This document shows, one piece after another, positions 18,776-46,386 of a stretch of DNA of 54,989 nucleotides; the first letter of the stretch is position 1; every line of letters begins with the position of its first letter. Source of the DNA: a virus; the IMG/VR virus record IMGVR_UViG_3300049989_000072, positions 1-54,989 of that record, one strand, 5' to 3'. The translations under genes and the position numbers were made by a program. The notes under the pieces are model-generated. The model was not told the origin of the DNA, did no database searches, and saw nothing but the letters and a program-made list of their open reading frames with translations.

Positions 18776-19183
18776 ATGGATGTAACCAAGGGCACCAGCC
18801 TGATCACCACGCAGAGCACCTACGACACCTGGAAGGACATCATCACGATCGTCTTCCCCGGTGCAGGAGCGCTGTACGCCGGACTCGCGCTCATCTGGGG
18901 CTTCCCGTTTGCCGAGGAGGTCGTCGGAACCATCGCTCTGATCGTCACCTTCGGCAGCATCCTGCTCAAGGTGGCGTCCAAGCAGTACGAGAACGCCCAG
19001 CCGGCACCTCCTCTCGAGGGTGGAATGGTGGTCGTCAACACGACGAGCATTTCCGCAGACCCTGTCTCCGCAAGCTTCACGGTCGACCCCCTCACCCTTC
19101 CCACTGGCACGGACCTTCTGATGACGGTTCGCAACGACAGCAACCCCGACGAGCTTCCCGATAACGCGCCCTCGCAGGACTAA
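18776..19183 (+). CDS. holin, Dp-1 family-like, with a C-terminal extension
   Basis: 'YDTWKDIITIVFPGAGALYAGLALIWGFPFAEEVVGTIALIVTFGSILLKVASKQY' parallels the Dp-1 holin signature (YD.LK......P....LY..L..IWglP....i.gT......FLG). AAGGAGAAAAC lies upstream. Confidence 0.6.
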   Translation: MDVTKGTSLITTQSTYDTWKDIITIVFPGAGALYAGLALIWGFPFAEEVVGTIALIVTFGSILLKVASKQYENAQPAPPLEGGMVVVNTTSISADPVSASFTVDPLTLPTGTDLLMTVRNDSNPDELPDNAPSQD

Positions 19184-19205
19184 CACGTCCTATAGTGAGA
19201 CCCCC
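19170..19205 (+). promoter_or_regulatory. promoter-like motif P1 (CCTCGCAGGACTAACACGTCCTATAGTGAGACCCCC)
   Basis: One of nine copies in identical register (21 nt from the first C to TATAGT). It overlaps the holin 3' end, 20 nt upstream of GTG 19225. Confidence 0.55.
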
Positions 19206-19220
19206 TCTTTGAAAGGAGAA
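19205..19220 (+). promoter_or_regulatory. conserved initiation motif copy (CTCTTTGAAAGGAGAA)
   Basis: Variant of TCTCTTGAAAGGAGAAC, 4 nt before GTG 19225. Confidence 0.6.
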
Positions 19221-19224
19221 GCGC

Positions 19225-19509
19225 GTGTTCGGTAAGACCAGCACCAAGCCCAACTTCAACAAGGAGATCACCTCCGTCCTCGAGCAACTCGACGGCATGA
19301 GCGTGACGACCCCGGAGTACGCAGAGACCCTAACGATCCTCGAGCGCCTCGCCAAAGTCCAGACCCAGCACAAGGGAAAGACCCAGGTGAGCGCCGACGC
19401 GATCGTGACGGCCGCTGCATCCCTCGGTGGCATCGCACTCATCCTCGGCTTCGAGAGGGCCCACGTGATCACCACGAAGGCGTTGGGCTTTGTAGCAAAG
19501 CTCAAGTAA
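19225..19509 (+). CDS. small protein with a C-terminal TM helix
   Basis: GTG follows TTTGAAAGGAGAAGCGC. The gene is preceded by promoter-like motif copy P1 and followed by a 20-bp-stem terminator. Confidence 0.55.
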   Translation: MFGKTSTKPNFNKEITSVLEQLDGMSVTTPEYAETLTILERLAKVQTQHKGKTQVSADAIVTAAASLGGIALILGFERAHVITTKALGFVAKLK

Positions 19510-19537
19510 CACCCGCCCATCACCAGATAGGCATCAC

Positions 19538-19589
19538 AAACAGAGAACGCGTGTAGAACGTAACAATCATCTACACGCGTTCTCTGTTT
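19538..19589 (+). terminator. intrinsic terminator after the late operon
   Basis: Perfect 20-bp stem AAACAGAGAACGCGTGTAGA / TCTACACGCGTTCTCTGTTT with a 12-nt loop and a T-rich tail. Confidence 0.8.
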
Positions 19590-19595
19590 CTGTCT

Positions 19596-19619
19596 TATAA
19601 ATTTTCTCCGATCAAAATG
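19596..19619 (+). promoter_or_regulatory. module-boundary motif copy A (TATAAATTTTCTCCGATCAAAATG)
   Basis: Shares TATAAA..TTCTCCGATCA.A.AAT with 51277-51301. It lies just after the late-operon terminator. Confidence 0.35.
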
Positions 19620-19623
19620 TGAG

Positions 19624-19658
19624 TCTCGCAGGATCTACAGGCCATATAATGAGACCCC
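19624..19658 (+). promoter_or_regulatory. promoter-like motif P2 (TCTCGCAGGATCTACAGGCCATATAATGAGACCCC)
   Basis: Same register; the hexamer here is TATAAT. It follows the strong terminator at 19538-19589 and precedes ATG 19685. Confidence 0.55.
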
Positions 19659-19684
19659 TACCCACTTCACACAAGGAGATACCC

Positions 19685-19945
19685 ATGTTCGACAAGATCG
19701 CAACCGGCATCGTCCTCACGTCAGTCGTGAGCCTCGGAGTCATCGCAACGATCAACATCGAGAAGCTCTACCGCACTCGAGTCAAGCTCATCAACACCGA
19801 GCTGAAGCTCAAGGCGGCAGAGGAACTCTCGAAGAAGCTCGTCCACGCGATGCCCTCCGACCAGCTCGTCGACTTCGCCGCTGAGAACATGTCGCCGGAA
19901 GCATTCGAGGCATGGGGCACCGCCGTGCTCGCAAGCAGGCAGTAG
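19685..19945 (+). CDS. small membrane protein (MFDKI family)
   Basis: AAGGAGATACCC precedes the ATG, with an N-terminal TM helix. The first 19 nt (ACCCATGTTCGACAAGATC) are identical to the start region of the 20295 gene. P2 lies upstream and a hairpin downstream. Confidence 0.6.
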   Translation: MFDKIATGIVLTSVVSLGVIATINIEKLYRTRVKLINTELKLKAAEELSKKLVHAMPSDQLVDFAAENMSPEAFEAWGTAVLASRQ

Positions 19946-19955
19946 CCCTCAAGGG

Positions 19956-19975
19956 TGTAACCAGCAATGGTTACA
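19956..19975 (+). terminator. weak hairpin terminator
   Basis: TGTAACC-AGCAAT-GGTTACA followed by TTCTTTCTCC and preceded by CCCTCAAG. Confidence 0.35.
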
Positions 19976-19983
19976 TTCTTTCT

Positions 19984-20019
19984 CCTCGCAAGATTTACAG
20001 GGCCTATAGTGAGACCCCC
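19984..20019 (+). promoter_or_regulatory. promoter-like motif P3 (CCTCGCAAGATTTACAGGGCCTATAGTGAGACCCCC)
   Basis: Near-consensus copy that precedes ATG 20039. Confidence 0.55.
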
Positions 20020-20038
20020 TAATTCTAAGGAGAACATC

Positions 20039-20224
20039 ATGGAGACCCAGACCCCCCTCGCAGTCCTGTCCAAGATCGACTTCGCCAAGGTCGTCGGCCA
20101 GCAGGCCACCATCGCATTCGCCGTCACGGCGGGTTCGCTGGCTGGTATCACGGTCGTCGGCGCAGGCATCGTCCTCATCGACAGCATCATCGAGAAGCGT
20201 AAGGCTTCCAAGAACGACAACTGA
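20039..20224 (+). CDS. small membrane protein
   Basis: 61 aa. TAAGGAGAACATC precedes the ATG. There is a TM segment ATIAFAVTAGSLAGITVVGAGIVLI, and P3 lies upstream. Confidence 0.55.
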   Translation: METQTPLAVLSKIDFAKVVGQQATIAFAVTAGSLAGITVVGAGIVLIDSIIEKRKASKNDN

Positions 20225-20294
20225 GAACCACCCCTCAAGGAGAGAGTACCCTAACCGGTGCTCCCTTCTTTTTCGTTTCGAGAAAGGCAGACCC

Positions 20295-20522
20295 ATGTTC
20301 GACAAGATCCCGGCCGCAACCACCGCAGCCATCGAGAAGACCACGCCCATCATCCTCTCGGCATCGCAGCTGGCGGACAGCATCGAGGAGTTCGTCTCCT
20401 ACCGTCAGCTCGCATACCAGAAGGGCTACAACAAGGGTCTCTTCGTCGGTGTCGTCGCGACCATCGTCATCGCCACGGCCATCAACCACTACGACAAGAA
20501 GCAGGGTACGTGGAAGTCGTAG
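20295..20522 (+). CDS. small membrane protein (MFDKI family)
   Basis: 75 aa with a C-terminal TM helix GLFVGVVATIVIATAI. It shares its start region with the 19685 gene. Confidence 0.55.
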   Translation: MFDKIPAATTAAIEKTTPIILSASQLADSIEEFVSYRQLAYQKGYNKGLFVGVVATIVIATAINHYDKKQGTWKS

Positions 20523-20659
20523 ACTACGTCCTCTTCGCTCTCATCGTGATCGGTGGACCTCTCGGTCTTCTCATATTTGCAGCCGTCTCCGCTGTTCGTA
20601 GCTACAACCGCGAAGACGATGCTCGCAAGAATGACACCGGCTATAGTGAGAAGATCTAG
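20510..20659 (+). CDS. possible 49-aa membrane peptide
   Basis: GTG overlaps the upstream gene end. TM segment is YVLFALIVIGGPLGLLIFAAV. The 3' end contains promoter-like motif P4. There is no clear SD. Confidence 0.3.
   Translation: MEVVDYVLFALIVIGGPLGLLIFAAVSAVRSYNREDDARKNDTGYSEKI
20621..20653 (+). promoter_or_regulatory. promoter-like motif P4 (GCTCGCAAGAATGACACCGGCTATAGTGAGAAG)
   Basis: Same register, upstream of the 20739 gene. Confidence 0.5.
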
Positions 20660-20710
20660 AGTACCCCACTCCGCCGAAACCTCGGCTTGATCAAGCATGC
20701 GACTTCTCAT

Positions 20711-20735
20711 CATATTTTTCTCTTGAAAGGAGAAC
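20711..20735 (+). promoter_or_regulatory. conserved initiation motif copy (CATATTTTTCTCTTGAAAGGAGAAC)
   Basis: 3 nt before ATG 20739. Confidence 0.65.
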
Positions 20736-20738
20736 CTC

Positions 20739-20909
20739 ATGATGAAAACCGGAAGGTTTCGAAGAGTCTACGTCGTGAAGTTTCCTGACGGTCGTCAAGA
20801 GACATACGACGAGTACGGAAGCCTCTACGAGCTTGGAAAAGCTCTCCGATCCGAAGGGATCGATACCGATACCCTGACTCTCATCTCCGGCGAGCCCTAC
20901 AAGCTCTAA
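20739..20909 (+). CDS. hypothetical protein (56 aa)
   Basis: A canonical CATATTTTTCTCTTGAAAGGAGAAC motif lies 3 nt upstream of the ATG. The ORF is too short for the supplied track. Confidence 0.5.
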   Translation: MMKTGRFRRVYVVKFPDGRQETYDEYGSLYELGKALRSEGIDTDTLTLISGEPYKL

Positions 20910-20912
20910 CGT

Positions 20913-20930
20913 TTCTCTTGAAAGGAGAAC
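20913..20930 (+). promoter_or_regulatory. conserved initiation motif copy (TTCTCTTGAAAGGAGAAC)
   Basis: 2 nt before ATG 20933. Confidence 0.65.
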
Positions 20931-20932
20931 TA

Positions 20933-21142
20933 ATGCCTCTTCCCTCCTCGACGCTCGACTACACCATCGGCTCGATGCCGTTCTGGTTCGGGCTTCCCCT
21001 CTTCTTCATCCTCCTGCTCATCCTCGCGATGCAGTGGCGACGCGCCGTCGTCGTTCGCAGACGCGCAGAGGTCAAGCTCCCCACCGGCAACATGTCGGCT
21101 GCCGGAACACCCAAGCCCCGCTCTAAGGAGTACCGCAAGTGA
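20933..21142 (+). CDS. small membrane protein
   Basis: TTCTCTTGAAAGGAGAAC lies 2 nt upstream. TM segment is MPFWFGLPLFFILLLILAM. Confidence 0.55.
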   Translation: MPLPSSTLDYTIGSMPFWFGLPLFFILLLILAMQWRRAVVVRRRAEVKLPTGNMSAAGTPKPRSKEYRK

Positions 21143-21975
21143 AGGACCAGATCATCACGATCGCCCGGTCTGCATTCAAGCAGATCTCGGACAACTCGCC
21201 CACCATCCTGACCGCCCTCGGCGCAACGGGTGTCGTGGGTACAGCTGTCCTCGCCGCTCGGGGTCACCGCGACGCTCGAGCAGCAATCATGCGTCAGAAG
21301 CATGTCCTCACGGGCATGGATGACGGCGAGTGGACCTACCAGGAGGTGCTCCAGGCCCTCGAGCAGATCGAGATCCCGCCGGCGGATGTCTTCAAGCTCA
21401 CCTGGTCGCACTACCTGCCGGCCGCCGTCACGGGCGCGGCATCGATCGCGTGCATCATCGGCGCCAACTCGATCCACACGAGGCGTCAGGCCATCCTGAT
21501 GAGCGCCTACACCCTCTCCGAGCGTGCTCTCAACGAGTACCAGGCGAAGGTCCAGGAGGTCATCGGCGAGAAGAAGGCTGAGGCGATCAAGGATGAGGTC
21601 GCCAAGGATCGTGTGCTCGCCACGCCGTCAGACGCCTACGTCCCGCCGTACCAGGGCAAGGGTCAGCTGTGCCAGGACTCGCAGTCCGGTCGATATTTCT
21701 GGGCAACCCCGGAGCAGATCGACCGAGCTGAGAACGAGGTCAACCAGATGATCCTCAACGACGGTCATGCCTCGCTCAACGACTTCTACCGGCGCATCCC
21801 GGACGAGGAACTGGGGCCGATCGCTGCAGGCGAGGAGCTCGGGTGGACCAACGGTACCCTCATCGGTCTCCGCAAGACCGCGGTGCTGACGCCCGAGGAC
21901 AAGACCGTACTCTTCATCGAGTACACGACCGATCCCATCCGCAACTACTGGCGCGCGCACCCCTACGAGCGCTGA
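21139..21975 (+). CDS. membrane-anchored protein, paralog of 27140..28018 (DUF6353-like, name from memory)
   Basis: GTG follows AAGGAG. It shares with the 27140 protein two N-terminal hydrophobic helices, 'Y.P......ASIACIIGA' and a coiled region followed by a globular C-terminus. Confidence 0.45.
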   Translation: MKDQIITIARSAFKQISDNSPTILTALGATGVVGTAVLAARGHRDARAAIMRQKHVLTGMDDGEWTYQEVLQALEQIEIPPADVFKLTWSHYLPAAVTGAASIACIIGANSIHTRRQAILMSAYTLSERALNEYQAKVQEVIGEKKAEAIKDEVAKDRVLATPSDAYVPPYQGKGQLCQDSQSGRYFWATPEQIDRAENEVNQMILNDGHASLNDFYRRIPDEELGPIAAGEELGWTNGTLIGLRKTAVLTPEDKTVLFIEYTTDPIRNYWRAHPYER

Positions 21976-22023
21976 CCAACGTTCGGGGACGGTGCATATT
22001 TTGGCCGTCCCCGACACCCAATC

Positions 22024-22040
22024 GCTCTTGAAAGGAGCAC
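22024..22040 (+). promoter_or_regulatory. conserved initiation motif copy (GCTCTTGAAAGGAGCAC)
   Basis: 3 nt before ATG 22044. Confidence 0.6.
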
Positions 22041-22043
22041 ATC

Positions 22044-22700
22044 ATGGATTCCAAGACCTTCGACGACGTCATCGAGCACGTCGACAACATCTCGCGTGAC
22101 ACCCTCATGAAGAAGAACGGTGCCTACAACCCGAGCGAGGACAAGCTGGCCGGATTCAAGACCGCCGCAAACCTCCAGGGTATCACCCCTCGTGAGGCGT
22201 GCGTCGGTATGATGGCCAAGCACATCGTCTCCGTCTTCGACATGGTCGGAGCAGAAGGACCGTTCGACGAGGAAGTCTGGGACGAGAAGATCGGCGACTC
22301 GATCAACTACATGTACCTCCTTCGTGCGCTCATCGTGGAGGAGACCATGGATCGACTCGAGCGCGAGGACAAGATGATCGAGGATGCGCAGACCATGTCC
22401 AGCGAGCGTGTCAACGCCGAGGCTCGCAAGAACACGATGGAGTACTACATCGACCGTCCGAACGAGCCGATCCCGGAGGGGTATTCGACCGAGGTTCGGG
22501 AGGAGATCCAGCAGAAGCGCAAGGAAGCCGAGATCGAGCGCTTCCAGAAGGATCCCTACAAGCCCACGGCAGCCGAGCAGACCCTCATCGGCAAGCTCGT
22601 GAACAATCCCGACGCCTCCATCCCCGAGGACAAGCCGCAGGGGTTCAAGGACGCGGTCGAGTTCGGTCGAAGGCTGGCCAAGGGAGCTCACGCCCAGTAG
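22044..22700 (+). CDS. DUF1599 / MazG-like nucleotide-pyrophosphohydrolase-related N-terminal domain protein (tentative)
   Basis: 'LMKKNGAYN..DKLAGFKTAANLQGITPREACVGMMAKHIVSVFDMV......DEKIGDSINYMYLLRALIVEE' fits the DUF1599-type helical pattern (K..dY....F....g.....KH.........D..nY..L). Confidence 0.35.
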   Translation: MDSKTFDDVIEHVDNISRDTLMKKNGAYNPSEDKLAGFKTAANLQGITPREACVGMMAKHIVSVFDMVGAEGPFDEEVWDEKIGDSINYMYLLRALIVEETMDRLEREDKMIEDAQTMSSERVNAEARKNTMEYYIDRPNEPIPEGYSTEVREEIQQKRKEAEIERFQKDPYKPTAAEQTLIGKLVNNPDASIPEDKPQGFKDAVEFGRRLAKGAHAQ

Positions 22701-22702
22701 AT

Positions 22703-22737
22703 CCTCGCAGGATTTACACGCCCTATAGTGAGACCCC
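22703..22737 (+). promoter_or_regulatory. promoter-like motif P5 (CCTCGCAGGATTTACACGCCCTATAGTGAGACCCC)
   Basis: Starts 3 nt after the stop of the 22044 gene and precedes ATG 22768. Confidence 0.55.
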
Positions 22738-22767
22738 TCATTCACCCTCAACCCAAGGAGTAATCCC

Positions 22768-22986
22768 ATGGACGCAGAGAAGAAGAACTTCCTCGAGACC
22801 CTCAAGGCCAACAAGGAGACCATCATCCGTCGCACCCTGCTCGTCGCAGGCGTCGTCGGTGGCATCGCAATCGCCACCGTCATCGCCTCCGCAGCAGCCA
22901 AGCAGTCGGATGAGGCCGCCCTGGAGGCCCTGGAGGACTCGGAGCTCGTCTTCCTCGAGCCCATCGACACCCCCGTCGAGAGCTGA
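22768..22986 (+). CDS. small membrane protein
   Basis: P5 lies upstream and AAGGAGTAATCCC precedes the ATG. TM segment is LLVAGVVGGIAIATVIASAAA. A perfect 12-bp hairpin follows. Confidence 0.6.
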   Translation: MDAEKKNFLETLKANKETIIRRTLLVAGVVGGIAIATVIASAAAKQSDEAALEALEDSELVFLEPIDTPVES

Positions 22987-22997
22987 GACCCTCACCC

Positions 22998-23035
22998 GAA
23001 GGGAGCGTATAGTAGCAATACCGTACGCTCCCTTC
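22998..23035 (+). terminator. intrinsic terminator
   Basis: Perfect 12-bp stem GAAGGGAGCGTA / TACGCTCCCTTC followed by TTCTCTCTTTG. Confidence 0.7.
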
Positions 23036-23076
23036 TTCTCTCTTTGTCTGCATATTTGGAAAGGATGAGTTTTCAA

Positions 23077-23385
23077 ATGGTCATTCCTGTCGGCTTCAAC
23101 GACGATCACCTCCCTGCGCCACCCCGCGTGCCAGGAACAGATCTTAGCGACATGGATCGCAGACTCATGGAGGTCTGGGGGCGGTACTACGCACGCTCCG
23201 GCGGTCGTGACAACCACGCACTGGCTTCTGCTGCCACATATCTGAATCTCGCAATCACGGATCTGGAGATCCAGCGGGTGAAGAAGTGGTGGTCCAACGG
23301 CGTCCTCGACTACGCCCAGGATCAAGACACGGTAGACAAGTTCGTGGACGATCTCGAGATCTTCGCAAACATCCTTCTGGGCTAG
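23077..23385 (+). CDS. hypothetical protein
   Basis: Frame of track ORF 23044. ATG 23077 lies 8-12 nt after GGAAAGGATGAG, and ATG 23065 is an alternative start. Confidence 0.45.
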   Translation: MVIPVGFNDDHLPAPPRVPGTDLSDMDRRLMEVWGRYYARSGGRDNHALASAATYLNLAITDLEIQRVKKWWSNGVLDYAQDQDTVDKFVDDLEIFANILLG

Positions 23386-23389
23386 AGCC

Positions 23390-23411
23390 CATATTCTCTT
23401 GAAAGGAGAAC
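23390..23411 (+). promoter_or_regulatory. conserved initiation motif copy (CATATTCTCTTGAAAGGAGAAC)
   Basis: 8 nt before ATG 23420. Confidence 0.65.
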
Positions 23412-23419
23412 CACGTCTG

Positions 23420-23572
23420 ATGGCGGGTAAAGCAATCGGTTTCGTCAACCCTCAGGGTCGCTACGAGGTGTCATATTTCTTCACGGAGATCGACAACGAG
23501 GAGCGAGCCATCCTTCAAACGGGCCTCAACGAGCGTGCCCAGGAGCACTTCAAGGCGATGGAGGCAGCCTGA
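23420..23572 (+). CDS. hypothetical protein (50 aa)
   Basis: CATATTCTCTTGAAAGGAGAAC motif lies 8 nt upstream. The stop overlaps the next start (TGATG). Confidence 0.5.
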   Translation: MAGKAIGFVNPQGRYEVSYFFTEIDNEERAILQTGLNERAQEHFKAMEAA

Positions 23573-24120
23573 TGGGCAAGCGAGGACGACCCGTCACGTT
23601 GGATCAACTTGCAAAGCAAGGGATTCGACCAAACTTCCTTCGCCCGGAAGATCGCCTTCCCGAGGAGATGATTCCAGGTCCGAAACTGCCGGGCAGTGCA
23701 ACGACCTTCGATCCGCCCCTCACGTTCGACACATCAACCCTCGACCATCCCTTCTACAAGGAGAAGACCATGCTGCCCGACACCACCATGGGCCCGATGG
23801 GCCTTACCTCCTCGCACGACAGCGAGAGCGACCCCGACCAGTACCTGACCAAAGCGAAGGACATCGTCAGGAACTTCGTCGACTCGTACCTCCAGAACAA
23901 CCCCGAGCACCGCATGGAGATGCCCCACTACGAGGTCTACATCGTGTGGTTCTCCAAGGTGCTCAAGAACTGGAAGGCCGTCCTCTCGACGAGCCTCCCT
24001 GACGGACGCATCTACGAGGTCACCTACAACGGCGAGAAGGCTGAGGCCTACCTCGACTCGTACATGAAGACCCAGAACGCCGTGTTCGCCGATGACCTCG
24101 GCCGCGGCCTTCCCCGCTAA
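23572..24120 (+). CDS. hypothetical protein
   Basis: 182-aa ORF translationally coupled to the previous one. C-terminal 'IVWFSKVLKNWKAVLSTSLPDGRIYEVTYNG' resembles a conserved phage domain of unknown function. Confidence 0.5.
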   Translation: MGKRGRPVTLDQLAKQGIRPNFLRPEDRLPEEMIPGPKLPGSATTFDPPLTFDTSTLDHPFYKEKTMLPDTTMGPMGLTSSHDSESDPDQYLTKAKDIVRNFVDSYLQNNPEHRMEMPHYEVYIVWFSKVLKNWKAVLSTSLPDGRIYEVTYNGEKAEAYLDSYMKTQNAVFADDLGRGLPR

Positions 24121-24153
24121 CCACAACCACAACCCAGAAAGTAGGCATATTTC

Positions 24154-24969: not shown

Positions 24970-25004
24970 CCTCGCAAGAACTGCATGGCCTATAGTGAGA
25001 ACCC
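24970..25004 (+). promoter_or_regulatory. promoter-like motif P6 (CCTCGCAAGAACTGCATGGCCTATAGTGAGAACCC)
   Basis: Same register; precedes ATG 25034. Confidence 0.55.
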
Positions 25005-25033
25005 ATTTTTCATCCCTCACCAAGGAGAACCAC

Positions 25034-25303
25034 ATGAACAAGCTCGCCATCGTCAAGGGCGTGTCCCACGTCGTCGTGTCCGTCGGTGTCGGAGCGGTCC
25101 TCGGGAATGCCATCCAGGCGACCTCCCCCATCAACGCAAGCACCCTCAACACGGTGCTGACCGCGGTGGGCAAGTTCGCGCTGGGCGGCATCCTCGCGGA
25201 CGCTTCGACCAAGTACGTCAACACGATCATCGAGGACACCGCCAAGGCATTCAAGGCCGGCAACACCATCGTGATCGACCCCTCGACCACGGACGAGAAG
25301 TAA
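25034..25303 (+). CDS. small membrane protein
   Basis: P6 lies upstream and AAGGAGAACCAC precedes the ATG. Hydrophobic segments are VSHVVVSVGVGAVLG and FALGGILA. A hairpin follows. Confidence 0.6.
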   Translation: MNKLAIVKGVSHVVVSVGVGAVLGNAIQATSPINASTLNTVLTAVGKFALGGILADASTKYVNTIIEDTAKAFKAGNTIVIDPSTTDEK

Positions 25304-25309
25304 CCCCTC

Positions 25310-35708: not shown

Positions 35709-35742
35709 CCTCGCAAAAACCACACACCCCATAGTGAGAGCC
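35709..35742 (+). promoter_or_regulatory. promoter-like motif P7 (CCTCGCAAAAACCACACACCCCATAGTGAGAGCC)
   Basis: Same register with a CATAGT hexamer; precedes the SSB-like gene (ATG 35788). Confidence 0.5.
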
Positions 35743-35787
35743 GCCCCGGCTTTCATATTTTCATCTCACAACCAAGGAGAACAAGAG

Positions 35788-36267
35788 ATGGCACAGGCAC
35801 AGCGACGAAGCACCACCCTCGAGAACGTCCCCCTGATGTTCCGCAACTTCGCCGGCGAAGCTCGGCAGTTCAACGACGAGGGCAAGCGCAACTTCCACAT
35901 CTTCCTCGAGCCCGAGGTGGCGGAGGCGATGGCCCGCGACGGCTGGAACGTCAAGAACCTCAAGCCGAAGGACGAGGACGATCTCGTCGGTCAGGCGCAC
36001 CTGAAGGTCCTCGTGAACTTCAAGGGTCGTCCGCCGCAGATCTACATGGTGACGAGCAAGAAGAAGACCAAGCTCGACGAGGACACGGTGATGCTCCTCG
36101 ACACGGCGGACATCATCCGCGCCGACGTCACGATCAACCAGTACGAGTTCGACCCCCAGGGTCAGCCCGGAAAGTTCACGGCGTACTGCGACGTGCTCTA
36201 CGCGACCATCCGCGAGTCCGAGCTCGACATGAAGTACGACGAGCTGCCCGACGCAATCGCCGGCTAG
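35788..36267 (+). CDS. putative ssDNA-binding protein (OB-fold, acidic tail)
   Basis: P7 lies upstream, AAGGAGAACAAGAG precedes the ATG and a hairpin follows. 159 aa. 'FRNFAGEA..F...GKRNFHIFL', '..HLKVLVNF' and the acidic C-terminus ESELDMKYDELPDAIAG resemble phage SSBs (gp2.5/DUF2815-like). Confidence 0.4.
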   Translation: MAQAQRRSTTLENVPLMFRNFAGEARQFNDEGKRNFHIFLEPEVAEAMARDGWNVKNLKPKDEDDLVGQAHLKVLVNFKGRPPQIYMVTSKKKTKLDEDTVMLLDTADIIRADVTINQYEFDPQGQPGKFTAYCDVLYATIRESELDMKYDELPDAIAG

Positions 36268-40458: not shown

Positions 40459-40463
40459 CCCCC

Positions 40464-40480
40464 TCTCTTGAAAGGAGACC
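40464..40480 (+). promoter_or_regulatory. conserved initiation motif copy (TCTCTTGAAAGGAGACC)
   Basis: 4 nt before ATG 40485. Confidence 0.6.
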
Positions 40481-40484
40481 AAAG

Positions 40485-41210: not shown

Positions 41211-41700
41211 AGCCTGGGCGGACATCGAAGGATTCCCAAACTACGTAGTCAGCAGTGCGGGAGAAGTGGTGAATGTCAAGTTCCGACGTTCCCTCAACCC
41301 CCGCCCCAATCCGCACGGTGGTGGACTCCGGGTGACGCTTTCTCGTGAAGGGCGTCACCAGGAGTTCTACGTGCATCAGCTCGTAGCTGCGGCATTCCTT
41401 GATGGATACCGCCCCGGCGTGCATATTCGGCACGTCGACAGCAATAAGGACAACAACCATGTCAGCAACCTTTCATTCCGAAAGGGTCATTCTCGCGGTG
41501 ACGAGACCACTGGAGGTAGGGGACAACAGCTACCTCATCGAGGCTCTACGCGCGTCCGCATCGTCGAGACTGGCGAGGTCTTCCTCTCCGTCCGAGACTG
41601 CGCAAGATATTTGGGAGGGGACTACTCCACCATCTACCGATGCCTTCGAGACCCTGGTCGCAGACATAAAGGCTACACGTATGAGTACTTTGACGGGTGA
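41194..41700 (+). CDS. HNH homing endonuclease (NUMOD4 + HNH_3 + C-terminal HTH)
   Basis: 'WADIEGFPNYVVSSAGEVVN', 'HQLVAAAFL....IRHVDSNKDNNHVSNL' and 'VFLSVRDCARYLGGDYSTIYRCL'. Confidence 0.75.
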   Translation: MTESAEAWADIEGFPNYVVSSAGEVVNVKFRRSLNPRPNPHGGGLRVTLSREGRHQEFYVHQLVAAAFLDGYRPGVHIRHVDSNKDNNHVSNLSFRKGHSRGDETTGGRGQQLPHRGSTRVRIVETGEVFLSVRDCARYLGGDYSTIYRCLRDPGRRHKGYTYEYFDG

Positions 41701-42175
41701 AGAATTCCGGACGATTCCGGGATACCCTCGATACTCAATCTCGAATCACGGTCGAGTTCGCAACGACAAGAACGGGCGCTTTCTGAAGCCCAGTGCGGAT
41801 GCGCATGGATATTTGCGAGTGCAGCTTTCTCGAAGTCAGGGGAAGCGACTTTTCTATCTTGCGCGTCTGGTCTATGCGGTGTTCGTAGATGTGGAGCTTC
41901 GACAAGGCACCATCATTCGCCCAAAGGACGACGATCTCACGAATCTTCATGTCGACAACCTCGAGGCGTTGCATAGAAACATGGCCCAGGGAAAGGCTCT
42001 GTTCGACACGACCGAACCACCAAGAACTGTGCAAAGTCGCAGCGCAAGGCCGTTCGCCCGTCGAATCGAGATGTGTCCCAAAGTTCCTGATCACCCACCC
42101 CACAGATACCTGCACCCAGTCTTTGGGACGGTCTACTGTAACAACCTAGGAGTAAAGCGAGACCTCTATGCTTGA
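41681..42175 (+). CDS. second NUMOD4/HNH_3-like gene, possibly catalytically degenerate
   Basis: 'FRTIPGYPRYSISNHGRVRN' and 'LARLVYAVFV....IRPKDDDLTNLHVDNLE'. The first His of the HNH motif is replaced by Pro relative to the upstream paralog. Confidence 0.6.
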   Translation: MSTLTGEEFRTIPGYPRYSISNHGRVRNDKNGRFLKPSADAHGYLRVQLSRSQGKRLFYLARLVYAVFVDVELRQGTIIRPKDDDLTNLHVDNLEALHRNMAQGKALFDTTEPPRTVQSRSARPFARRIEMCPKVPDHPPHRYLHPVFGTVYCNNLGVKRDLYA

Positions 42176-42293
42176 GACCAAGCAGTGCACGTTCATCAAC
42201 CACAAGCACGATCCCCACAACTGGTTCGACCCCATCGTCGTCGACGGTAAGGTCTCGGGTCGTGAGAAGTTCCATTGCGAGGGGAAGTCGTAA
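42168..42293 (+). CDS. mini Cys/His protein 1 (41 aa)
   Basis: 'KQCTFINHKHDPHNW....KFHCEG'. It is the first of six tandem, overlapping tiny ORFs sharing a C-x(5-7)-H-x(2)-H ... C-x-G pattern. Confidence 0.4.
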   Translation: MLETKQCTFINHKHDPHNWFDPIVVDGKVSGREKFHCEGKS

Positions 42294-42568
42294 TGTCAGG
42301 ACCCATGAAGCCGGCCATTCCCGTCGGCCATGAGACCTCCACCCCTGTCGTCAAGTCCCGAGAGCGGATGAAGGCGAAGGAGAAGGCCAGAAAGGAACGC
42401 AAGAAGGAGCAGAAGGTACGCGGCAGTCGCATCGCCGAGTACACCAAGAAGCACCTGGTTCCGGTTCGCAAGTGCGAAAAGGTCACCAAGCACAACGAGC
42501 ACCTCTACTACTCCAAGGACGCGTTCGGGGCAAACCGCGCCATGCACTGTGTGGGACGAGCTTCGTGA
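42293..42568 (+). CDS. mini Cys/His protein 2 (basic N-terminus)
   Basis: Coupled start (TAATG). '..RKCEKVTKHNEHLYY.....AMHCVG'. Confidence 0.4.
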   Translation: MSGPMKPAIPVGHETSTPVVKSRERMKAKEKARKERKKEQKVRGSRIAEYTKKHLVPVRKCEKVTKHNEHLYYSKDAFGANRAMHCVGRAS

Positions 42569-42735
42569 CCATCAGCGCCTCGAGCAAGGCCCCCTCGAAG
42601 TCCGCCATGCCCAAGAAGGCGTGTCAAGATTGGCGTCCGCACCGTGCCCATGTGCGCAACGTCAAGTGGCCAACATATCCCTATCGCCAGGCAGTTGTGT
42701 GTCAGGGGGTGGAGAATGATGACGATTCCATGTGA
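42565..42735 (+). CDS. mini Cys/His protein 3
   Basis: GTG overlaps the upstream stop (GTGA). '..KKACQDWRPHRAHV......AVVCQG'. Confidence 0.35.
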   Translation: MTISASSKAPSKSAMPKKACQDWRPHRAHVRNVKWPTYPYRQAVVCQGVENDDDSM

Positions 42736-42835
42736 GCTGTGGATGCCGCATAAGGGACATAAGCACGTTCGAATGAAGGGTGAAGCTCCCGGGCAGATTT
42801 TCTGGTGCCCCGGAGTAGAGCAGCATGAATCCTAA
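42716..42835 (+). CDS. mini Cys/His protein 4 (39 aa)
   Basis: GGGGGTGGAGA precedes the ATG. 'IPCELWMPHKGHKHV......IFWCPG'. Confidence 0.4.
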   Translation: MMTIPCELWMPHKGHKHVRMKGEAPGQIFWCPGVEQHES

Positions 42836-42953
42836 GCGCTGTAACCTCGACGTCAAGCACTATGCTCACGACTGGGACTTCATTCTGATCGAGGATGATG
42901 AAGGTCGACAGGCGTGGCTATATTCGTTCTGCGACGGTCTCGTATGGCTGTAA
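42825..42953 (+). CDS. mini Cys/His protein 5 (42 aa)
   Basis: 'KRCNLDVKHYAHDW.......YSFCDG'. It overlaps its neighbours. Confidence 0.4.
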   Translation: MNPKRCNLDVKHYAHDWDFILIEDDEGRQAWLYSFCDGLVWL

Positions 42954-43123
42954 GTGAGTACGAAGGGTTCTTTCAGTGTGGCAACTTTGAGAATCACGGT
43001 CCTCACGAGCACGACATGATGGTCTTTGGGAGGGATGGTATGGGTTTTGACGCTGTCATCGAGACGGTGTGGTGTTTTGGTCGAGCCCACGACCTCCCTG
43101 CGTACAGAGATCTCGGACCATGA
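42944..43123 (+). CDS. mini Cys/His protein 6 (59 aa)
   Basis: 'FQCGNFENHGPHEHDM......VWCFG'. The stop overlaps the helicase start (ATGA). Confidence 0.4.
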   Translation: MAVSEYEGFFQCGNFENHGPHEHDMMVFGRDGMGFDAVIETVWCFGRAHDLPAYRDLGP

Positions 43124-44397
43124 CTTACGAACTGATGCCTCATCAACGTGAGGCGATTGGAAAGATGCGCAATGGCTCTGTCCTCAAAGGTGGTGTCGGA
43201 ACTGGCAAGACAATCACGGCGCTCGGGTATTTTTACGGCCACGTTGCAGGAGGCTGTCTCGAGCAGAAGCAGGATCGTTCGTATCACCCTCCGACCAGTC
43301 CCCGTGACCTCTACGTCATCACAACGGCAAAGAAGCGAGACTCCCTCGACTGGGAAGAAGAGGCCCTCATGGGCTTCGGCATCTCCCGAGACCCCGATCT
43401 TTCCGCTGGCGGCATAAAGCTCACCGTCGATAGCTGGAACAACATTGACCGCTACGTCGGAGTGAAGGATGCATTCTTCATTTTCGATGAGCAGCGGCTG
43501 GTGGGCTCCGGCGCCTGGGTCAAGGCCTTCCACAAGCTAGCCCAGGACAACCAATGGATCCTTCTGTCTGCCACCCCCGGTGACAGCTGGATCGAATACG
43601 CCCCTATCTTCATCGCACACGGTTGGTATAAGAACCGCACCGAGTTCATGAAGAAGCATGTGGTGTACAACACCTTCGCCAAGTTCCCCAAGATCGACCG
43701 CTATGTCGAGACGGGTATCCTGGAGAAGTACCGTCGTGCAGTCCTCGTCGAGATGCCGTACAACCGCCACACCAAGCGGCACGTGCTCAATACGATGGTC
43801 GGATACGACGAAGCACTGTACAACCGGGTGGTGAAAGACCGCTGGCACGTGTACGAGGAACGCCCCATTCGAGATATTGCGGAGATGATTCGCGTCGCTC
43901 GACAGGTGATCAACTCGGACACATCGAGACTTGCCGCGGTCATGGAGTTGCTCGAGAAGCACGACCGACTCATCATCTTCTACAACTTCAACTACGAGCT
44001 CGACATGCTCCGTACGTTGTCGTGTCTGGGACTTCCGATGGCCGAGTGGAACGGCATCAAGCATCAACCAATCCCAGAGGCAAAGAAGTGGATCTACCTC
44101 GTGCAGTATACAGCCGGCGCCGAAGGCTGGAACTGCATCTCGACCAACGCTATCTGCTTCTGGTCGCTCAACTACTCGTACAAGATCACCGAGCAGGGCA
44201 GAGGGCGCATCGACCGCCTGAACACCCCGTTCGACGATCTGTACTACTACACCCTGCGGTCTATGGCGGGTGTGGATACGGCGATCAACAAGAAGCTCGC
44301 CACCAAGACCAACTTCTCAGAGAAAGCCTACGTCAAACAGGCTGGTCTGTGGCCGGAAGAAAAGGAGCCGGAGAAGGTCTTGGTGTCATACCAGTAA
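43120..44397 (+). CDS. SF2 (SNF2/DEAD-like) helicase
   Basis: 'LMPHQREAI', motif I 'GGVGTGKT', motif II 'FIFDEQRL', 'LLSATPG', helicase-C 'LIIFYNFNYE' and motif VI-like 'TEQGRGRIDR'. Confidence 0.8.
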   Translation: MTYELMPHQREAIGKMRNGSVLKGGVGTGKTITALGYFYGHVAGGCLEQKQDRSYHPPTSPRDLYVITTAKKRDSLDWEEEALMGFGISRDPDLSAGGIKLTVDSWNNIDRYVGVKDAFFIFDEQRLVGSGAWVKAFHKLAQDNQWILLSATPGDSWIEYAPIFIAHGWYKNRTEFMKKHVVYNTFAKFPKIDRYVETGILEKYRRAVLVEMPYNRHTKRHVLNTMVGYDEALYNRVVKDRWHVYEERPIRDIAEMIRVARQVINSDTSRLAAVMELLEKHDRLIIFYNFNYELDMLRTLSCLGLPMAEWNGIKHQPIPEAKKWIYLVQYTAGAEGWNCISTNAICFWSLNYSYKITEQGRGRIDRLNTPFDDLYYYTLRSMAGVDTAINKKLATKTNFSEKAYVKQAGLWPEEKEPEKVLVSYQ

Positions 44398-44408
44398 GGA
44401 GAAGAAGG

Positions 44409-44891
44409 ATGAGTGAGCTCAGCAGAAAGATGGCGTTTGCTCTGCGCCACGGTCCGGGTGAGTTTGGGCTCGGACTGGCACCAAACGGGTCGATTCGACT
44501 GACCTGGTTTGCAGCGGCGATGAAAGCCACTGTCGAAGAGGTCAAAGAAGTCGTCAACAACGACTTTAAGGGCCGATTTGCAATCGAGGGACATCGAATT
44601 CGGGCGGTTCACGGTCATAGCATCGCGGTGGAGGCTCAGCGGGCGGCTTCGGTTGCTCCTGAGTGGCTCTACCACGGAACAAAGTCCAAGAACGTCGAAT
44701 CGATCATCAATCATGGGTTGATGCGCATGGAGCGTCAGCACGTCCACCTCAGCTCAAGCGCTGCTCGGGCTTTTGAGCGGGGTCCGCTGGTCATCCAAGT
44801 TCGATCGCAAGGTATCGAGGGTCTTCATATGGCCTCAAACGGTATCTGGCTCGCTCCCTGGGTGTCTTCCGACAACCTCTACTTCTTCTAA
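44409..44891 (+). CDS. kptA: RNA 2'-phosphotransferase (Tpt1/KptA family)
   Basis: AAGGAGAAGAAGG precedes the ATG. 'LSRKMAFALRHGPGEFGLGLAPNGSI', 'NDFKGRFAIEGHRIRAVHGHS', 'LYHGTKSKNVESIINHGLMRMERQHVHLS' match the family signature. Confidence 0.8.
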   Translation: MSELSRKMAFALRHGPGEFGLGLAPNGSIRLTWFAAAMKATVEEVKEVVNNDFKGRFAIEGHRIRAVHGHSIAVEAQRAASVAPEWLYHGTKSKNVESIINHGLMRMERQHVHLSSSAARAFERGPLVIQVRSQGIEGLHMASNGIWLAPWVSSDNLYFF

Positions 44892-44900
44892 GGAGCACTT

Positions 44901-45110
44901 ATGGGGACCATCACCGTCTGGGCACGGGCCATTCTGGTTAGCGACATCGTGTTCGTCGGTGGACAGGCCTATCGAGTGCACCGAGTCGTGGAAGACATCA
45001 ACGACGTGTGGGAGATTGAGGCCACACAGATCCATAACCAAGACCTATGGGTGGGTTTCGTGCTCATGGGCACTACCAATGTCCGCGTCATTCGCGGGCT
45101 TTCTCTTTGA
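44901..45110 (+). CDS. small hypothetical protein ('GD.V.VGG' family)
   Basis: TAAGGAGCACTT precedes the ATG. 'WARAILVSDIVFVGGQAYRVHRVVE'. The stop TGA lies inside the next TTCTCTTTGAAAGGAGAAC motif. Confidence 0.45.
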   Translation: MGTITVWARAILVSDIVFVGGQAYRVHRVVEDINDVWEIEATQIHNQDLWVGFVLMGTTNVRVIRGLSL

Positions 45111-45119
45111 AAGGAGAAC
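45101..45119 (+). promoter_or_regulatory. conserved initiation motif copy (TTCTCTTTGAAAGGAGAAC)
   Basis: 2 nt before ATG 45122. Its TGA is the stop of the 44901 gene. Confidence 0.65.
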
Positions 45120-45121
45120 AT

Positions 45122-45655
45122 ATGAAGATCACGCCCATCGACGAGCTTCGGCCCGAGCACATCGGTCAGATCGTTTCAGCCCAGTACATTCCTCGAGACC
45201 CTGAGGACGAGACGGGCGACACCCTGAAGACCGACAAGATGACCAAGCATGTCGGCATCCTTCAGACCTTCACCATCGATAAGGACGTCCCTCGTCGCTC
45301 GTTCCTTCGATTCCAGGGTGAGGGCACCTACATGCTTGCTCCGCGATCCGGAGACCGAGTCGAGCTGTACCTCCACACCCACGAGGACACAAAGCCGAGC
45401 GAGAGCGAGGAGGATGGCACCCTTCTCGAGATCTTCCCTCATGAGCTCAAGGAAGGCGATTGGGTTGAGCTTGGTACCGACTTCTACTCGATCAACACGC
45501 TCTACCACGAGCTGGAATCGGCCTCGATGGCGACCAGGTGGAAGTTGGAACTCCGTAACAAGAATCGCTCCAATTCGAGTACGATAGATGTTCTTTCCAT
45601 GACCCTCTCGTCGGAGACTCGCATCCGGATCAAGCGCTACAGAAGGCACGTCTGA
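45122..45655 (+). CDS. hypothetical protein
   Basis: TTCTCTTTGAAAGGAGAAC lies 2 nt upstream. 177 aa with 'FPHELKEGDWVELGTDFYSINTLY'. Confidence 0.5.
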   Translation: MKITPIDELRPEHIGQIVSAQYIPRDPEDETGDTLKTDKMTKHVGILQTFTIDKDVPRRSFLRFQGEGTYMLAPRSGDRVELYLHTHEDTKPSESEEDGTLLEIFPHELKEGDWVELGTDFYSINTLYHELESASMATRWKLELRNKNRSNSSTIDVLSMTLSSETRIRIKRYRRHV

Positions 45656-46050
45656 TGCCCAGGGAGTCTGAGGAGGTTGAAGTCCATCCGTGGGAGGTCC
45701 TTCAGGATGACGTGGTGAATGTTGCTGGGCGCATGCTGGCAATCGACTCCATCAACATGACGTCTCCGAGCGACCGAGAGGTATCTTTCAGCGACAATCG
45801 AGTCATGTTCGATACGTTTGATCGGCTGCTCATCAAGAACCTGGAGTTCACGTTCCGGTGTCGATCGGGGGAGACCTTCTGCGTTCCTGGTCACGAGCTC
45901 ATGAGGGTGCGGAGGTTCACGATTCCGGGCAATCGTGGGCGATCTGGGGAGACAGGGGAAGAAGCTCGGAGACGTGAGGAGGCGGAGTTCCGTCGGATGA
46001 ATCCGCACCTGTTCCCTGGCCAGGGTGGGGACATCGCTTCGCAAGAATGA
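45655..46050 (+). CDS. hypothetical protein
   Basis: Coupled start (TGATG). 131 aa with 'HPWEVLQDDVVNVAGRMLAIDSINM'. Confidence 0.45.
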   Translation: MPRESEEVEVHPWEVLQDDVVNVAGRMLAIDSINMTSPSDREVSFSDNRVMFDTFDRLLIKNLEFTFRCRSGETFCVPGHELMRVRRFTIPGNRGRSGETGEEARRREEAEFRRMNPHLFPGQGGDIASQE

Positions 46051-46070
46051 CAGGGCTCATAGTGAGACCC
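46037..46070 (+). promoter_or_regulatory. promoter-like motif P8 (CTTCGCAAGAATGACAGGGCTCATAGTGAGACCC)
   Basis: Same register; overlaps the 3' end of the 45655 gene and precedes ATG 46090. Confidence 0.5.
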
Positions 46071-46089
46071 ACTACCAAAGGAGAACCCC

Positions 46090-46302
46090 ATGCGTAAGCC
46101 CACTCGTCAGCAGATCGAGACCGGCGCCTTCGTCGCGTGTGCAGCCACTGGTGTCGTCGCCGCAGCGTACCTCGTCCTGACCCACAAGCAGAACGTGATC
46201 CGCACGGAGGCGTACGTCAAGTTCCTGCACGACTCGCTGAAGTCGTCGGACATCGCCCTGTCCAAGACCGTGGAGGCCATCGCCACCGCAATCCAGAAGT
46301 GA
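46090..46302 (+). CDS. small membrane protein
   Basis: P8 lies upstream and AAAGGAGAACCCC precedes the ATG. TM segment is GAFVACAATGVVAAAYLVL. A 9-bp-stem hairpin follows. Confidence 0.6.
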   Translation: MRKPTRQQIETGAFVACAATGVVAAAYLVLTHKQNVIRTEAYVKFLHDSLKSSDIALSKTVEAIATAIQK

Positions 46303-46310
46303 TCCACCTC

Positions 46311-46350
46311 GAGAGCCCCTGTAGACCCTAACCGGTTTGCGGGGGCTCTC
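46311..46350 (+). terminator. intrinsic terminator
   Basis: Perfect 9-bp stem GAGAGCCCC / GGGGCTCTC. The loop contains GACCCTAACCGG, and TTGTTGTC follows. Confidence 0.6.
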
Positions 46351-46354
46351 TTGT

Positions 46355-46386
46355 TGTCGCGAGAATGACTAGGGCTATAGTGAGAG
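46355..46386 (+). promoter_or_regulatory. promoter-like motif P9 (TGTCGCGAGAATGACTAGGGCTATAGTGAGAG)
   Basis: Same register; follows the hairpin at 46311-46350 and precedes ATG 46399. Confidence 0.5.

Follow-up and report, generated by a model that had tools for sequence, protein, structure and literature searches.

A fixed-register intergenic motif of 1706-like siphoviruses as candidate promoter for their own putative two-barrel RNA polymerase

The stretch of DNA analysed here, referred to as the window, comprises all 54,989 nucleotides (nt) of IMG/VR virus record IMGVR_UViG_3300049989_000072, and our analysis concerns a promoter-like motif repeated nine times within it together with open reading frame (ORF) 48024-50756, which encodes a candidate phage RNA polymerase (RNAP) of 910 amino acids (aa). 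The window represents a complete siphovirus genome, which its gene order and the similarity of its proteins assign to the "1706-like" supercluster, a group that takes in Arthrobacter clusters AM and AU, Gordonia DJ, Streptomyces BI, Rhodococcus CC, Microbacterium EL, the 1706-like phages of Lactococcus and Faecalibacterium phages. Its closest relatives belong to Microbacterium cluster EL, and no GenBank phage was found to be close to it at the DNA level. The genome has a G+C content of 57%, all of its plausible genes lie on the + strand, and its large ORFs include those for the large terminase, the portal, a protease-capsid fusion, the tape measure protein and a primase-polymerase.

A preliminary description of this DNA had reported nine copies of the motif in one register on the + strand. 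Searching both strands of the whole window with the fixed-register pattern CTCGCARGANNNACANNGNCTATAGTGAGA, at three or fewer mismatches, bore this out: nine matches were returned, all on the + strand (Table 1), with coordinates one higher than in the preliminary description because the leading 'n' had been counted there, and 100 dinucleotide-preserving shuffles gave no match at all. A position weight matrix (PWM) built from the nine copies, here called class I, scored them at 39-62 bits, and the scan for additional weak copies reached no more than -0.2 at the best other site on either strand; the gap of about 40 bits therefore marks the nine as a closed set, set sharply apart from background. 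The hexamer stands 21 nt from the first position in every copy, as had been claimed (TATAGT in six, CATAGT in two and TATAAT in one), and the information of the motif is concentrated in four blocks, namely (C)TCGCA(A/G)GA, ACA, the hexamer and an invariant GAGA that is usually followed by CCC.

The surroundings of the copies agree with the preliminary description in part. The interval of 20-45 nt that was said to precede the start codon holds for most copies and fails for those with 91, 52 and 17 nt, and the statement that most copies directly follow a terminator hairpin was too strong, given that a convincing hairpin precedes only three or four of the nine (19625, 19985, 46356 and perhaps 20622). 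Four of the nine copies abut or overlap the preceding ORF. The tiny membrane proteins noted downstream are well represented, with one transmembrane (TM)-like hydrophobic segment in seven of the nine downstream ORFs (46-94 aa), and the gene that had been called SSB-like (that is, similar to single-strand-binding proteins) instead matches the single-strand annealing protein family phrog_4787 (ORF 35788-36267). No conserved RNA secondary structure of the motif was supported, the best folding consisting of five weak pairs (-2.9 kcal/mol) with no compensatory changes. Within copies, CTCGC and GTGAG (for example 19985-19989 and 20009-20013) can pair imperfectly, with five pairs including one G-U, a pairing that is probably meaningless because it is not kept in relatives. 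As a separate observation, terminator-like hairpins at 46311-46350 and 20244-20263 of the window share the loop and closing sequence ACC-C(T/A)AAC(A)C-GGT, which also occurs sporadically in several distant phages (L003 at 23372 and 27170; L004 at 22284 and 23373; L007 at 17828 and 20271), and the Faecalibacterium phage FP_oengus has a conserved terminator family of its own, GAGCTGTGGAGAAATCTGCGGCTC followed by a T-run. The shared hairpins may serve as a signal, specific to the polymerase, for termination or processing, or they may be cassette sequence that was inherited.

The preliminary description had also tied the motif, as a phage-specific promoter class, to the product of ORF 48024, and comparison with related phages supports this tie. 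We examined ten genomes that carry an orthologous RNAP gene (the window, Camille, Circum, Secretariat, ReqiPepy6, Scap1, the oral phage D_HF4_2, P118, 1706 and FP_oengus) and a small set of three controls that lack it (Goodman, Appa and sk1). The motif was kept in one register in all ten RNAP-carrying genomes, from phages of Actinobacteria to those of Lactococcus and Faecalibacterium, and the three controls were nearly empty of it. In the RNAP-carrying relatives examined, the shared form CGCR-N6-ACA-N5-TATAAT-GAGA is the dominant non-coding repeat, with an altered hexamer in FP_oengus. Counting the C of CGC as position 0, the common layout places C(G/A)C(A/G) at 0-3, ACA at 10-12, the hexamer at 18-23 and GAGA at 24-27, the last being replaced by AGAA in the lactococcal phages. 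Strict-pattern matches on the + and - strands, respectively, numbered 8 and 0 in the window, 9 and 0 in Camille, 11 and 0 in Circum, 10 and 0 in Secretariat, 17 and 0 in ReqiPepy6, 12 and 1 in 1706, 9 and 1 in P118, and 2 and 1 in Scap1. The controls showed 0-2 strict matches per strand and no strand bias (Goodman, 0 and 1; Appa, 0 and 0; sk1, 2 and 1).

Several search methods recovered the same element. In Camille, the largest family reported by a repeat finder had eight copies of TCGCgnaAAaAACAnnnCtTATgrTGAGAACC, which share the register of the window, and clustering of non-coding windows placed a homologous family among the leading repeats of Circum, Secretariat and Lactococcus phage P118. 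This clustering was used instead of a whole-genome all-against-all comparison of 30-mers, which was dropped since codon periodicity dominated it. Pattern scans located the motif in Scap1, ReqiPepy6, D_HF4_2 and 1706; a simple ACA-N5-TAT..T pattern failed in FP_oengus, where a de novo search found a diverged homolog. In all genomes, the copies are confined to the region bounded by the tail genes and the polymerase operon and are never in the structural arm, and they often form part of promoter-small gene-terminator cassettes. One ReqiPepy6 copy stands directly before a phage transfer RNA (tRNA) gene (L008, 14185-14280), with about 9 nt from the hexamer to the mature 5' end, and the class is therefore not limited to protein-coding cassettes.

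A second form of the motif, class II, precedes the polymerase genes themselves. In the window it is the best sub-threshold site (class I PWM score -0.3), keeps the ACA-N5-hexamer register and heads a nuclease-exonuclease-RNAP operon (Table 1). Among 80 IMG/VR loci that encode the polymerase, 69 had enough upstream sequence to be scored, and their 10-kb flanks cover the class II copy only. A simple pattern found it at -820 to -1290 in 30 of the 69, and a weight matrix placed a class II copy at -820 to -1030 in about 50 of them, with the consensus CTCGCnTnnAAAACATnGnnTATAATAGAAGGAAtaga and the hexamer TATAAT in 37 of 50. This positional conservation ties the motif family to the polymerase gene. 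Autoregulation would fit this arrangement; as an alternative, synthesis of the polymerase may be primed there by host RNAP, since the site combines a perfect TATAAT with a purine-rich downstream region. Eight of the IMG/VR loci have TCG in place of ACA in the class II copy. No polymerase alignment column perfectly separates TCG-type from ACA-type promoters, the associations being graded; of the four most TCG-associated columns (Fisher p ~1e-5), two fall just after the N-terminal helix-turn-helix (HTH) domain (residues ~120 and ~122) and two in the final helix of the C-terminal HTH domain (residues ~905 and ~907), the HTH regions making up about 24% of polymerase length.

Upstream of the class II site lies a non-coding stretch of about 360 nt (window 46580-46940) dense in short direct repeats, among them TTCGTCCAAC at 46646, 46720, 46751 (one mismatch) and 46774, together with repeats of GTGGCCAAAAA and GTGGGAC. 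An inverted copy of TTCGTCCAAC occupies 47078-47087, a few nucleotides upstream of the class II promoter. This stretch resembles either an origin of the iteron type or an array of regulator-binding sites.

The product of ORF 48024, judged from its sequence and predicted structure, is a candidate single-polypeptide two-barrel RNAP with appended HTH domains, of the YonO/crAss type. Its N-terminal HTH domains span residues ~40-140 and its C-terminal one, similar to sigma-70 region 4, residues ~873-909; Pfam returned HTH domains only, at both ends and including sigma-70 region 4 models. It is 50-56% identical to right-end proteins annotated as 'HTH DNA-binding protein' or 'RNA-dependent RNA polymerase' in about 250 GenBank phages, matches phrog_4291 'RNA-dependent RNA polymerase' of PHROGs over its full length, and retrieved at least 8000 homologs in a metagenomic protein search. 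The DFDGD loop was invariant in 44 homologs, and homologs give weak Pfam matches to RNA-dependent RNA polymerase (RdRP) at this catalytic loop. The AlphaFold model (mean pLDDT, the model's own confidence score, 76) found its best PDB fold matches exclusively among largest subunits of multisubunit RNAPs (msRNAPs), namely Pol IV, Pol II, mycobacterial beta-prime and vaccinia, at E-values of 0.01-1, and a fold search of a viral structure library added double-psi beta-barrel proteins. Eight homologs of about 1045-1076 aa (P0013, P0014, P0028, P0035, P0052, P0090, P0103 and P0108) carry an additional Pfam domain, PF13563, which we take to be the 2'-5' RNA ligase superfamily.

The enzyme family itself has been flagged bioinformatically at least since 2010, when the 1706 protein appeared among the five YonO-like two-barrel families set out by Ruprich-Robert and Thuriaux. 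Koert et al. (10.1101/842583) reported HHpred similarity to RdRP (PF05183), a DxDGD loop and terminal HTH domains, treated the gene as the signature of the group, and named as group-wide conserved non-structural genes only the helicase, nucleases, the polymerase-type protein and a small ORF after it. A 2003 study of the enzyme family is among the works that they cite.

Table 1. Motif copies and associated features of the window (hexamer distance, nt from hexamer end to start codon; pattern start, first position of the match to CTCGCARGANNNACANNGNCTATAGTGAGA)
Feature	Position	Strand	Pattern start	Hexamer distance	Context
Class I copy 1 (CTCGCAGGACTAACACGTCC-TATAGT-GAGACCCC)	19170..19204	+	19171	28	overlaps end of ORF 18776-19183; before 94-aa ORF 19225-19509, one TM-like segment
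Class I copy 2, hexamer TATAAT	19624..19658	+	19625	34	before 86-aa ORF 19685-19945 (TM-like)
Class I copy 3, best consensus match, 62 bits	19984..20018	+	19985	28	right after hairpin GTGTAACCAGCAATGGTTACAT; before 61-aa ORF 20039-20224 (TM-like)
Class I copy 4, GAGAAGAT after hexamer	20621..20655	+	20622	91	leader to 56-aa ORF 20739-20909, not hydrophobic
Class I copy 5	22703..22737	+	22704	38	4 nt past ORF 22044-22700; before 72-aa ORF 22768-22986 (TM-like)
Class I copy 6	24970..25004	+	24971	37	before 89-aa ORF 25034-25303 (TM-like)
Class I copy 7, hexamer CATAGT	35709..35743	+	35710	52	before single-strand annealing protein gene 35788-36267
Class I copy 8 (TTCGCAAGA..., hexamer CATAGT)	46037..46071	+	46038	26	overlaps end of ORF 45712-46050; before 70-aa ORF 46090-46302 (TM-like)
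Class I copy 9	46355..46389	+	46356	17 (to ATG)	right after 17-bp-stem terminator 46311-46350; 46-aa ORF 46399-46539
Class II variant (CACGCAGTGTTTACATGCTA-TATAAT-AGAAGGGA)	47092..47125	+			912 nt upstream of RNAP start codon; heads nuclease-exonuclease-RNAP operon
Candidate single-polypeptide two-barrel RNA polymerase, 910 aa	48024..50756	+			invariant D519-F-D-G-D523 loop, terminal HTH domains
Small conserved ORF, 82 aa	50774-51022	+			directly after RNAP gene; last gene before cos-like region
Cos-like region	51045-51125				family-conserved: GGGGGGAGGGGTCTCGAAATTCTGACCCCCCCTCCGCATCGCCTCCCT; CCTCAAAAATTCCCCGGGGGACATTTTT

The geometry of the motif bears on which enzyme would read it. The preliminary description was correct that the upstream blocks do not stand at a -35 position, the spacer to the hexamer being 14 nt for CTCGCA and 5 nt for TTTACA. 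No -35 element was found at 16-18 nt in the class I copies, and a relaxed -35/-10 scan passed only one of the nine (46354, TTGTCG), sites of this kind showing no enrichment (2 observed versus 4.3 expected, and 5 versus 6.2). Canonical TTGACA-16/18-TATAAT sites were likewise not enriched anywhere between 17 and 55 kb. A TTTACA-like block 5 nt from the hexamer occurs in phages of hosts as unlike as Lactococcus and Gordonia, and whereas the host-dependent early promoters of Lactococcus phage sk1 are annotated as TTGACA-17-TATAAT, 1706 and P118 instead have TTTTACA 5 nt from the hexamer. The hexamer is of the TAnnnT type in the window and most relatives but not in FP_oengus (CTTTAT) or in the CCTAAT variants, which are found in four metagenomic relatives. 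The ten or more copies in FP_oengus, a phage that encodes an integrase, read GACGCGAAAAAtaCAGnnnnC-CTTTAT-GRRA and keep the register, CGC, CA and the purines behind the hexamer, but lack an A at the equivalent of -11.

Downstream of the hexamer, the search pattern itself fixed positions +1 and +2 as purine; positions +3 and +4 are purine in 88-100% of the sites in each genome. GAGA is followed by a C-tract in the actinophage copies. Of 65 sites assessed from sequence only, 32 have no purine at positions 6-8 past the hexamer, the place expected for a start of the sigma type (window, 4 of 9; Secretariat, 8 of 10; ReqiPepy6, 12 of 16). In 1706, a nearly full complement of the 3' end of 16S ribosomal RNA (AGAAAGAAGG) begins right after the hexamer, and because of this the messenger RNA would have its 5' end at the hexamer or very close to it. 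The layout, in which a conserved purine start directly adjoins an A/T-rich element, appears to resemble T7-type promoters more closely than a sigma promoter. Among the 49 further ORFs of the window, Pfam (E <= 0.001) identified no sigma, anti-sigma, MotA-like or other HTH family, a search that novel small factors could escape.

On this evidence, we consider it probable that the nine copies are phage-specific promoters read by the 910-aa two-barrel RNAP of ORF 48024-50756 instead of the sigma-A holoenzyme of the host. The HTH domains of the polymerase would read two duplex blocks, CGCR and (TT)ACA; CGCR, ACA and the hexamer are about one helical turn apart, which would place the HTH domains and the catalytic core on one face of the duplex, and the A/T-rich hexamer TATAGT/TATAAT would serve as the melting element. 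The GAGA behind the hexamer, or a position next to it, would be the start of the RNA, in the T7 style 'TATA|G' and not as at a sigma -10 located 7 nt upstream of the start. Promoters of this kind would drive short early or middle cassettes behind the tail genes, mostly one-TM mini-proteins plus recombination genes, and the class II variant (TATAAT-AGAAGG) would head the operon that holds the polymerase gene itself.

The least certain step of this scheme is that the polymerase may be delivered with the virion and transcribe the motif-headed genes right after injection. The GenBank record of 1706, by its authors, labels orf75, the polymerase homolog, as 'structural protein', and a note in the ReqiPepy6 record repeats the label. 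If the enzyme is packaged, the position of the motif before early-type genes would be explained, and so would the dozen copies without a sigma-like hexamer in an integrase-carrying relative. No comparable repeated promoter was found before the lysis and structural genes in a repeat-based search; that these genes are reached by transcription across the joined cos site is speculation. In its full form, the proposal is that a virion-carried single-chain two-barrel RNAP with built-in HTH domains of the sigma-4 kind and no separate initiation factor reads a tripartite CGCR-N6-ACA-N5-TATAAT|GAGA promoter for early transcription, enzyme and promoter co-evolving across thousands of siphoviruses of Actinobacteria and Firmicutes, and we put this forward tentatively, as a possibility that we regard with some doubt.

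Several points weigh against reading the motif as the promoter of the phage enzyme. The link between motif and enzyme is one of co-occurrence, and the co-variation between TCG or ACA and the polymerase is suggestive only, confounded as it is by phylogeny and with no perfect column. Sequence and profile searches of the polymerase against the PDB gave only HTH noise, which is why a fold search was needed, and the identification as an RNAP thus draws on remote homology and weak fold E-values. The putative virion association comes from a single annotation in one distant relative. Most relatives have a perfect sigma-A -10 as their hexamer (TATAAT), actinobacterial sigma-A promoters commonly need only a -10, and host RNAP could for these reasons use many of the copies; a position before early-type genes, moreover, is normally that of host-dependent promoters. 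The main rival explanation takes up such observations and treats the copies as '-10 only' promoters of host sigma-A, used unaided or with a phage activator, in the latter case with CGCR, ACA and GAGA flanks that bind a phage factor activating or redirecting host RNAP in the manner of T4 MotA/AsiA. The HTH domains of the 910-aa protein could act as that factor, with its catalytic core serving elsewhere, for example in late transcription from a single promoter as with YonO in SPbeta. We judge this explanation unlikely, though far from negligible. TATAAT or TATAGT is the hexamer of nearly all actinophage and lactococcal copies, class II sites are mostly TATAAT as well, the genes that follow are of early type, and the distance from the end of the CGCR block to the hexamer, 11 nt, is near the spacing of T4 middle promoters, in which the MotA box lies 11-13 nt upstream of the -10, around -30, and replaces the -35. 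YonO also uses one promoter for a long late operon, and a single-copy late promoter would escape a repeat-based search. The same explanation must nevertheless accommodate FP_oengus and the CCTAAT variants, which lack the A (-11) and/or T (-7) that sigma-A requires, as well as an ACA kept 5 nt upstream of the hexamer across host phyla, where sigma reads nothing specific. It places the expected start site in a C-tract, has to reckon with an invariant GAGA that abuts the hexamer, and sits poorly with the extended Shine-Dalgarno sequence of 1706 that begins right behind the hexamer. The 49 ORFs scanned yielded no sigma, anti-sigma or MotA-like gene, and in FP_oengus, with its integrase, each of a dozen strong host promoters would need to be repressed in the lysogen.

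Two further explanations seem much weaker. That the motif is no promoter at all, serving instead as an RNA-level site (processing or translation enhancer) or as a DNA site for replication, packaging or a repressor, we hold to be very improbable. Several copies abut the preceding ORF without a terminator, so that read-through transcripts would contain the motif, and parts of the motif are similar to GGGGTCTCGAAA, a block at window 51053-51064 close to the cos-like end; yet the weak pairing reported above offers no conserved structure for an RNA site, and the strict strand bias, the intergenic position 17-91 nt before start codons and the A/T-rich hexamer in a 57% G+C genome all speak for initiation of transcription, as do the ReqiPepy6 copy directly before a tRNA gene and the many copies that follow terminators and thus delimit promoter-gene-terminator cassettes. 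A T7-type promoter on the minus strand is hardly credible. The reverse complement of the motif, GGGGTCTCACTATAGGCC, shares CTCACTATAGG (11 nt) with the T7 promoter consensus, but no T7-like (Pol A family) RNAP was detected by Pfam in the eight largest and 49 further ORFs, the large ORFs being otherwise assigned; the T7 specificity region from -17 to -12 would fall in the non-conserved leader; and the TATAAT of relatives destroys the match. Minus-strand transcripts would moreover be purely antisense because all genes are on the + strand. We therefore rejected the minus-strand reading and regard the CTCACTATAGG likeness as coincidental.

The right end of the genome deserves separate mention. The right physical ends of Scap1 and ReqiPepy6 read GCATCGCCGCCCT, a sequence that recurs almost unchanged at positions 51082-51094 of the window, and the real right end probably lies near 51094 on account of this resemblance, which would make the polymerase gene and one small ORF the final genes of the linear genome. 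The small ORF (82 aa) has a homolog at the same position in all relatives examined for it (Circum, Scap1, Secretariat, P118, 1706, ReqiPepy6, D_HF4_2 and FP_oengus), and a 'conserved hypothetical protein' is placed in the same conserved block by Koert et al. (10.1101/842583); its product is a possible accessory factor or partner of the polymerase. Within the cos-like region, the block GGGGTCTCG(C/A)AA includes a TCGCAA-like block as well as GAGACCCC of the promoter in reverse complement, and it may be a site for the HTH domains of the polymerase or for the terminase. Elsewhere, TATAAAnnTTCTCCGATCA has two exact copies in the window (19596-19614 and 51277-51295) against a chance expectation of 0.03; the second lies in the left-end non-coding region, and TTGACA-N5 just before it yields TTGACA-AACAC-TATAAA, with the 5-nt spacing of the main motif. 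Pfam matches in the scanned ORFs between 20.9 and 54.2 kb further include an Acb2/Tad1 hairpin domain (the anti-CBASS/anti-Thoeris sponge family), the RNA 2'-phosphotransferase Tpt1/KptA family, a PARP catalytic domain, Peptidase_M23 and NUMOD4/HNH homing-endonuclease domains.

A description of the motif was not found in the literature, a literal sequence search included, within a survey that did not cover the 1706 and ReqiPepy6 genome papers, which may list putative promoters; the papers on the clusters mention arrays of membrane-protein genes and not the motif. A phage-specific promoter class for a phage-encoded RNAP is in itself already known, from T7, N4, phiKZ/AR9 and P23-45. YonO-type enzymes have been known since 2017, and YonO, a sister of the present family, is of proven activity (PMC5467207). 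Here, a cross-phylum family of at least 8000 homologs presents a sharply defined promoter candidate of about 30 nt in fixed register, and with it a possible reason for the so far unexplained promoter-gene-terminator mini-cassettes that encode membrane proteins and stand in arrays in clusters AM, AU, CC, DJ, EL and BI. If the proposed reading is true, the YonO-like branch of RNAPs would have its first defined promoter, and the pair would form a compact new orthogonal transcription system that could serve Gram-positive hosts.

Comparison with known systems places the motif among several types of phage promoters. The intergenic repeat 5'-TAGaCTATaGGTgTaAgC of Microbacterium cluster EC is likewise asymmetric, in one orientation and located in small gaps between genes, 21-30 bp before start codons (Jacobs-Sera et al. 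2020, PMC7302621, who describe no motif for cluster EL), but such repeats have another sequence and the clusters concerned encode a sigma factor instead of a two-barrel RNAP. T4 middle promoters share with the window a -10-like hexamer and a conserved box about 11-13 nt upstream that replaces the -35; unlike them, the window has the extra ACA and GAGA blocks, some of its relatives have a non-TAnnnT hexamer, and MotA/AsiA-like genes were not detected. Like the promoters of T7, T3 and SP6, the motif is a contiguous, strand-specific consensus (~30-35 nt) that is repeated before genes and shifts between related phages with its register kept, and TATA directly precedes a purine-rich initial sequence in T7 (TATA|GGGAGA) as in the window (TATAGT|GAGA), a likeness of layout and not of membership. 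Unlike T7 RNAP, to which it is unrelated, the candidate enzyme of the window is of the two-barrel (beta/beta-prime-like) kind and would probably recognize DNA via its appended HTH domains, and the upstream part of its promoter would be tripartite (CGCR, ACA, hexamer), in contrast to the continuous -17 to -5 block of T7.

Virion-packaged RNAPs that transcribe early genes are known from crAss-like phages (gp66, a two-barrel, RdRP-like enzyme) and from coliphage N4. The N4 virion RNAP differs in being T7-like and reading hairpin promoters, and crAss gp66 in being much larger and having no defined promoters, while the virion link in the present group is the 'structural protein' label of 1706 orf75. 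YonO of the Bacillus prophage SPbeta transcribes one long late operon from a single start, and its promoter sequence and need for extra factors were left undetermined by Forrest et al. (2017, PMC5467207). It is alike in being a phage-encoded single chain (~100 kDa) that has a DxDGD loop and is distantly homologous to msRNAP and RdRP, and unlike in that the window group has 9-17 motif copies per genome, located in the early/middle region, and an enzyme with N- and C-terminal HTH domains. For Thermus phage P23-45, Chaban et al. (2024, PMC10770324) described two two-barrel RNAPs, gp96 (in the virion, fused to the tape measure protein) and gp64 (non-virion), with AT-rich and GC-rich promoter motifs. 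No similarity in sequence to the enzyme or the motif of the window was seen, no search aimed at it having been made. Starts were mapped experimentally there, and the window's motif is known from sequence alone. The P23-45 system likewise joins two-barrel RNAPs to their own repeated motifs upstream of early or pre-early genes, enzyme and motif co-occurring across relatives and one of the enzymes being delivered by the virion.

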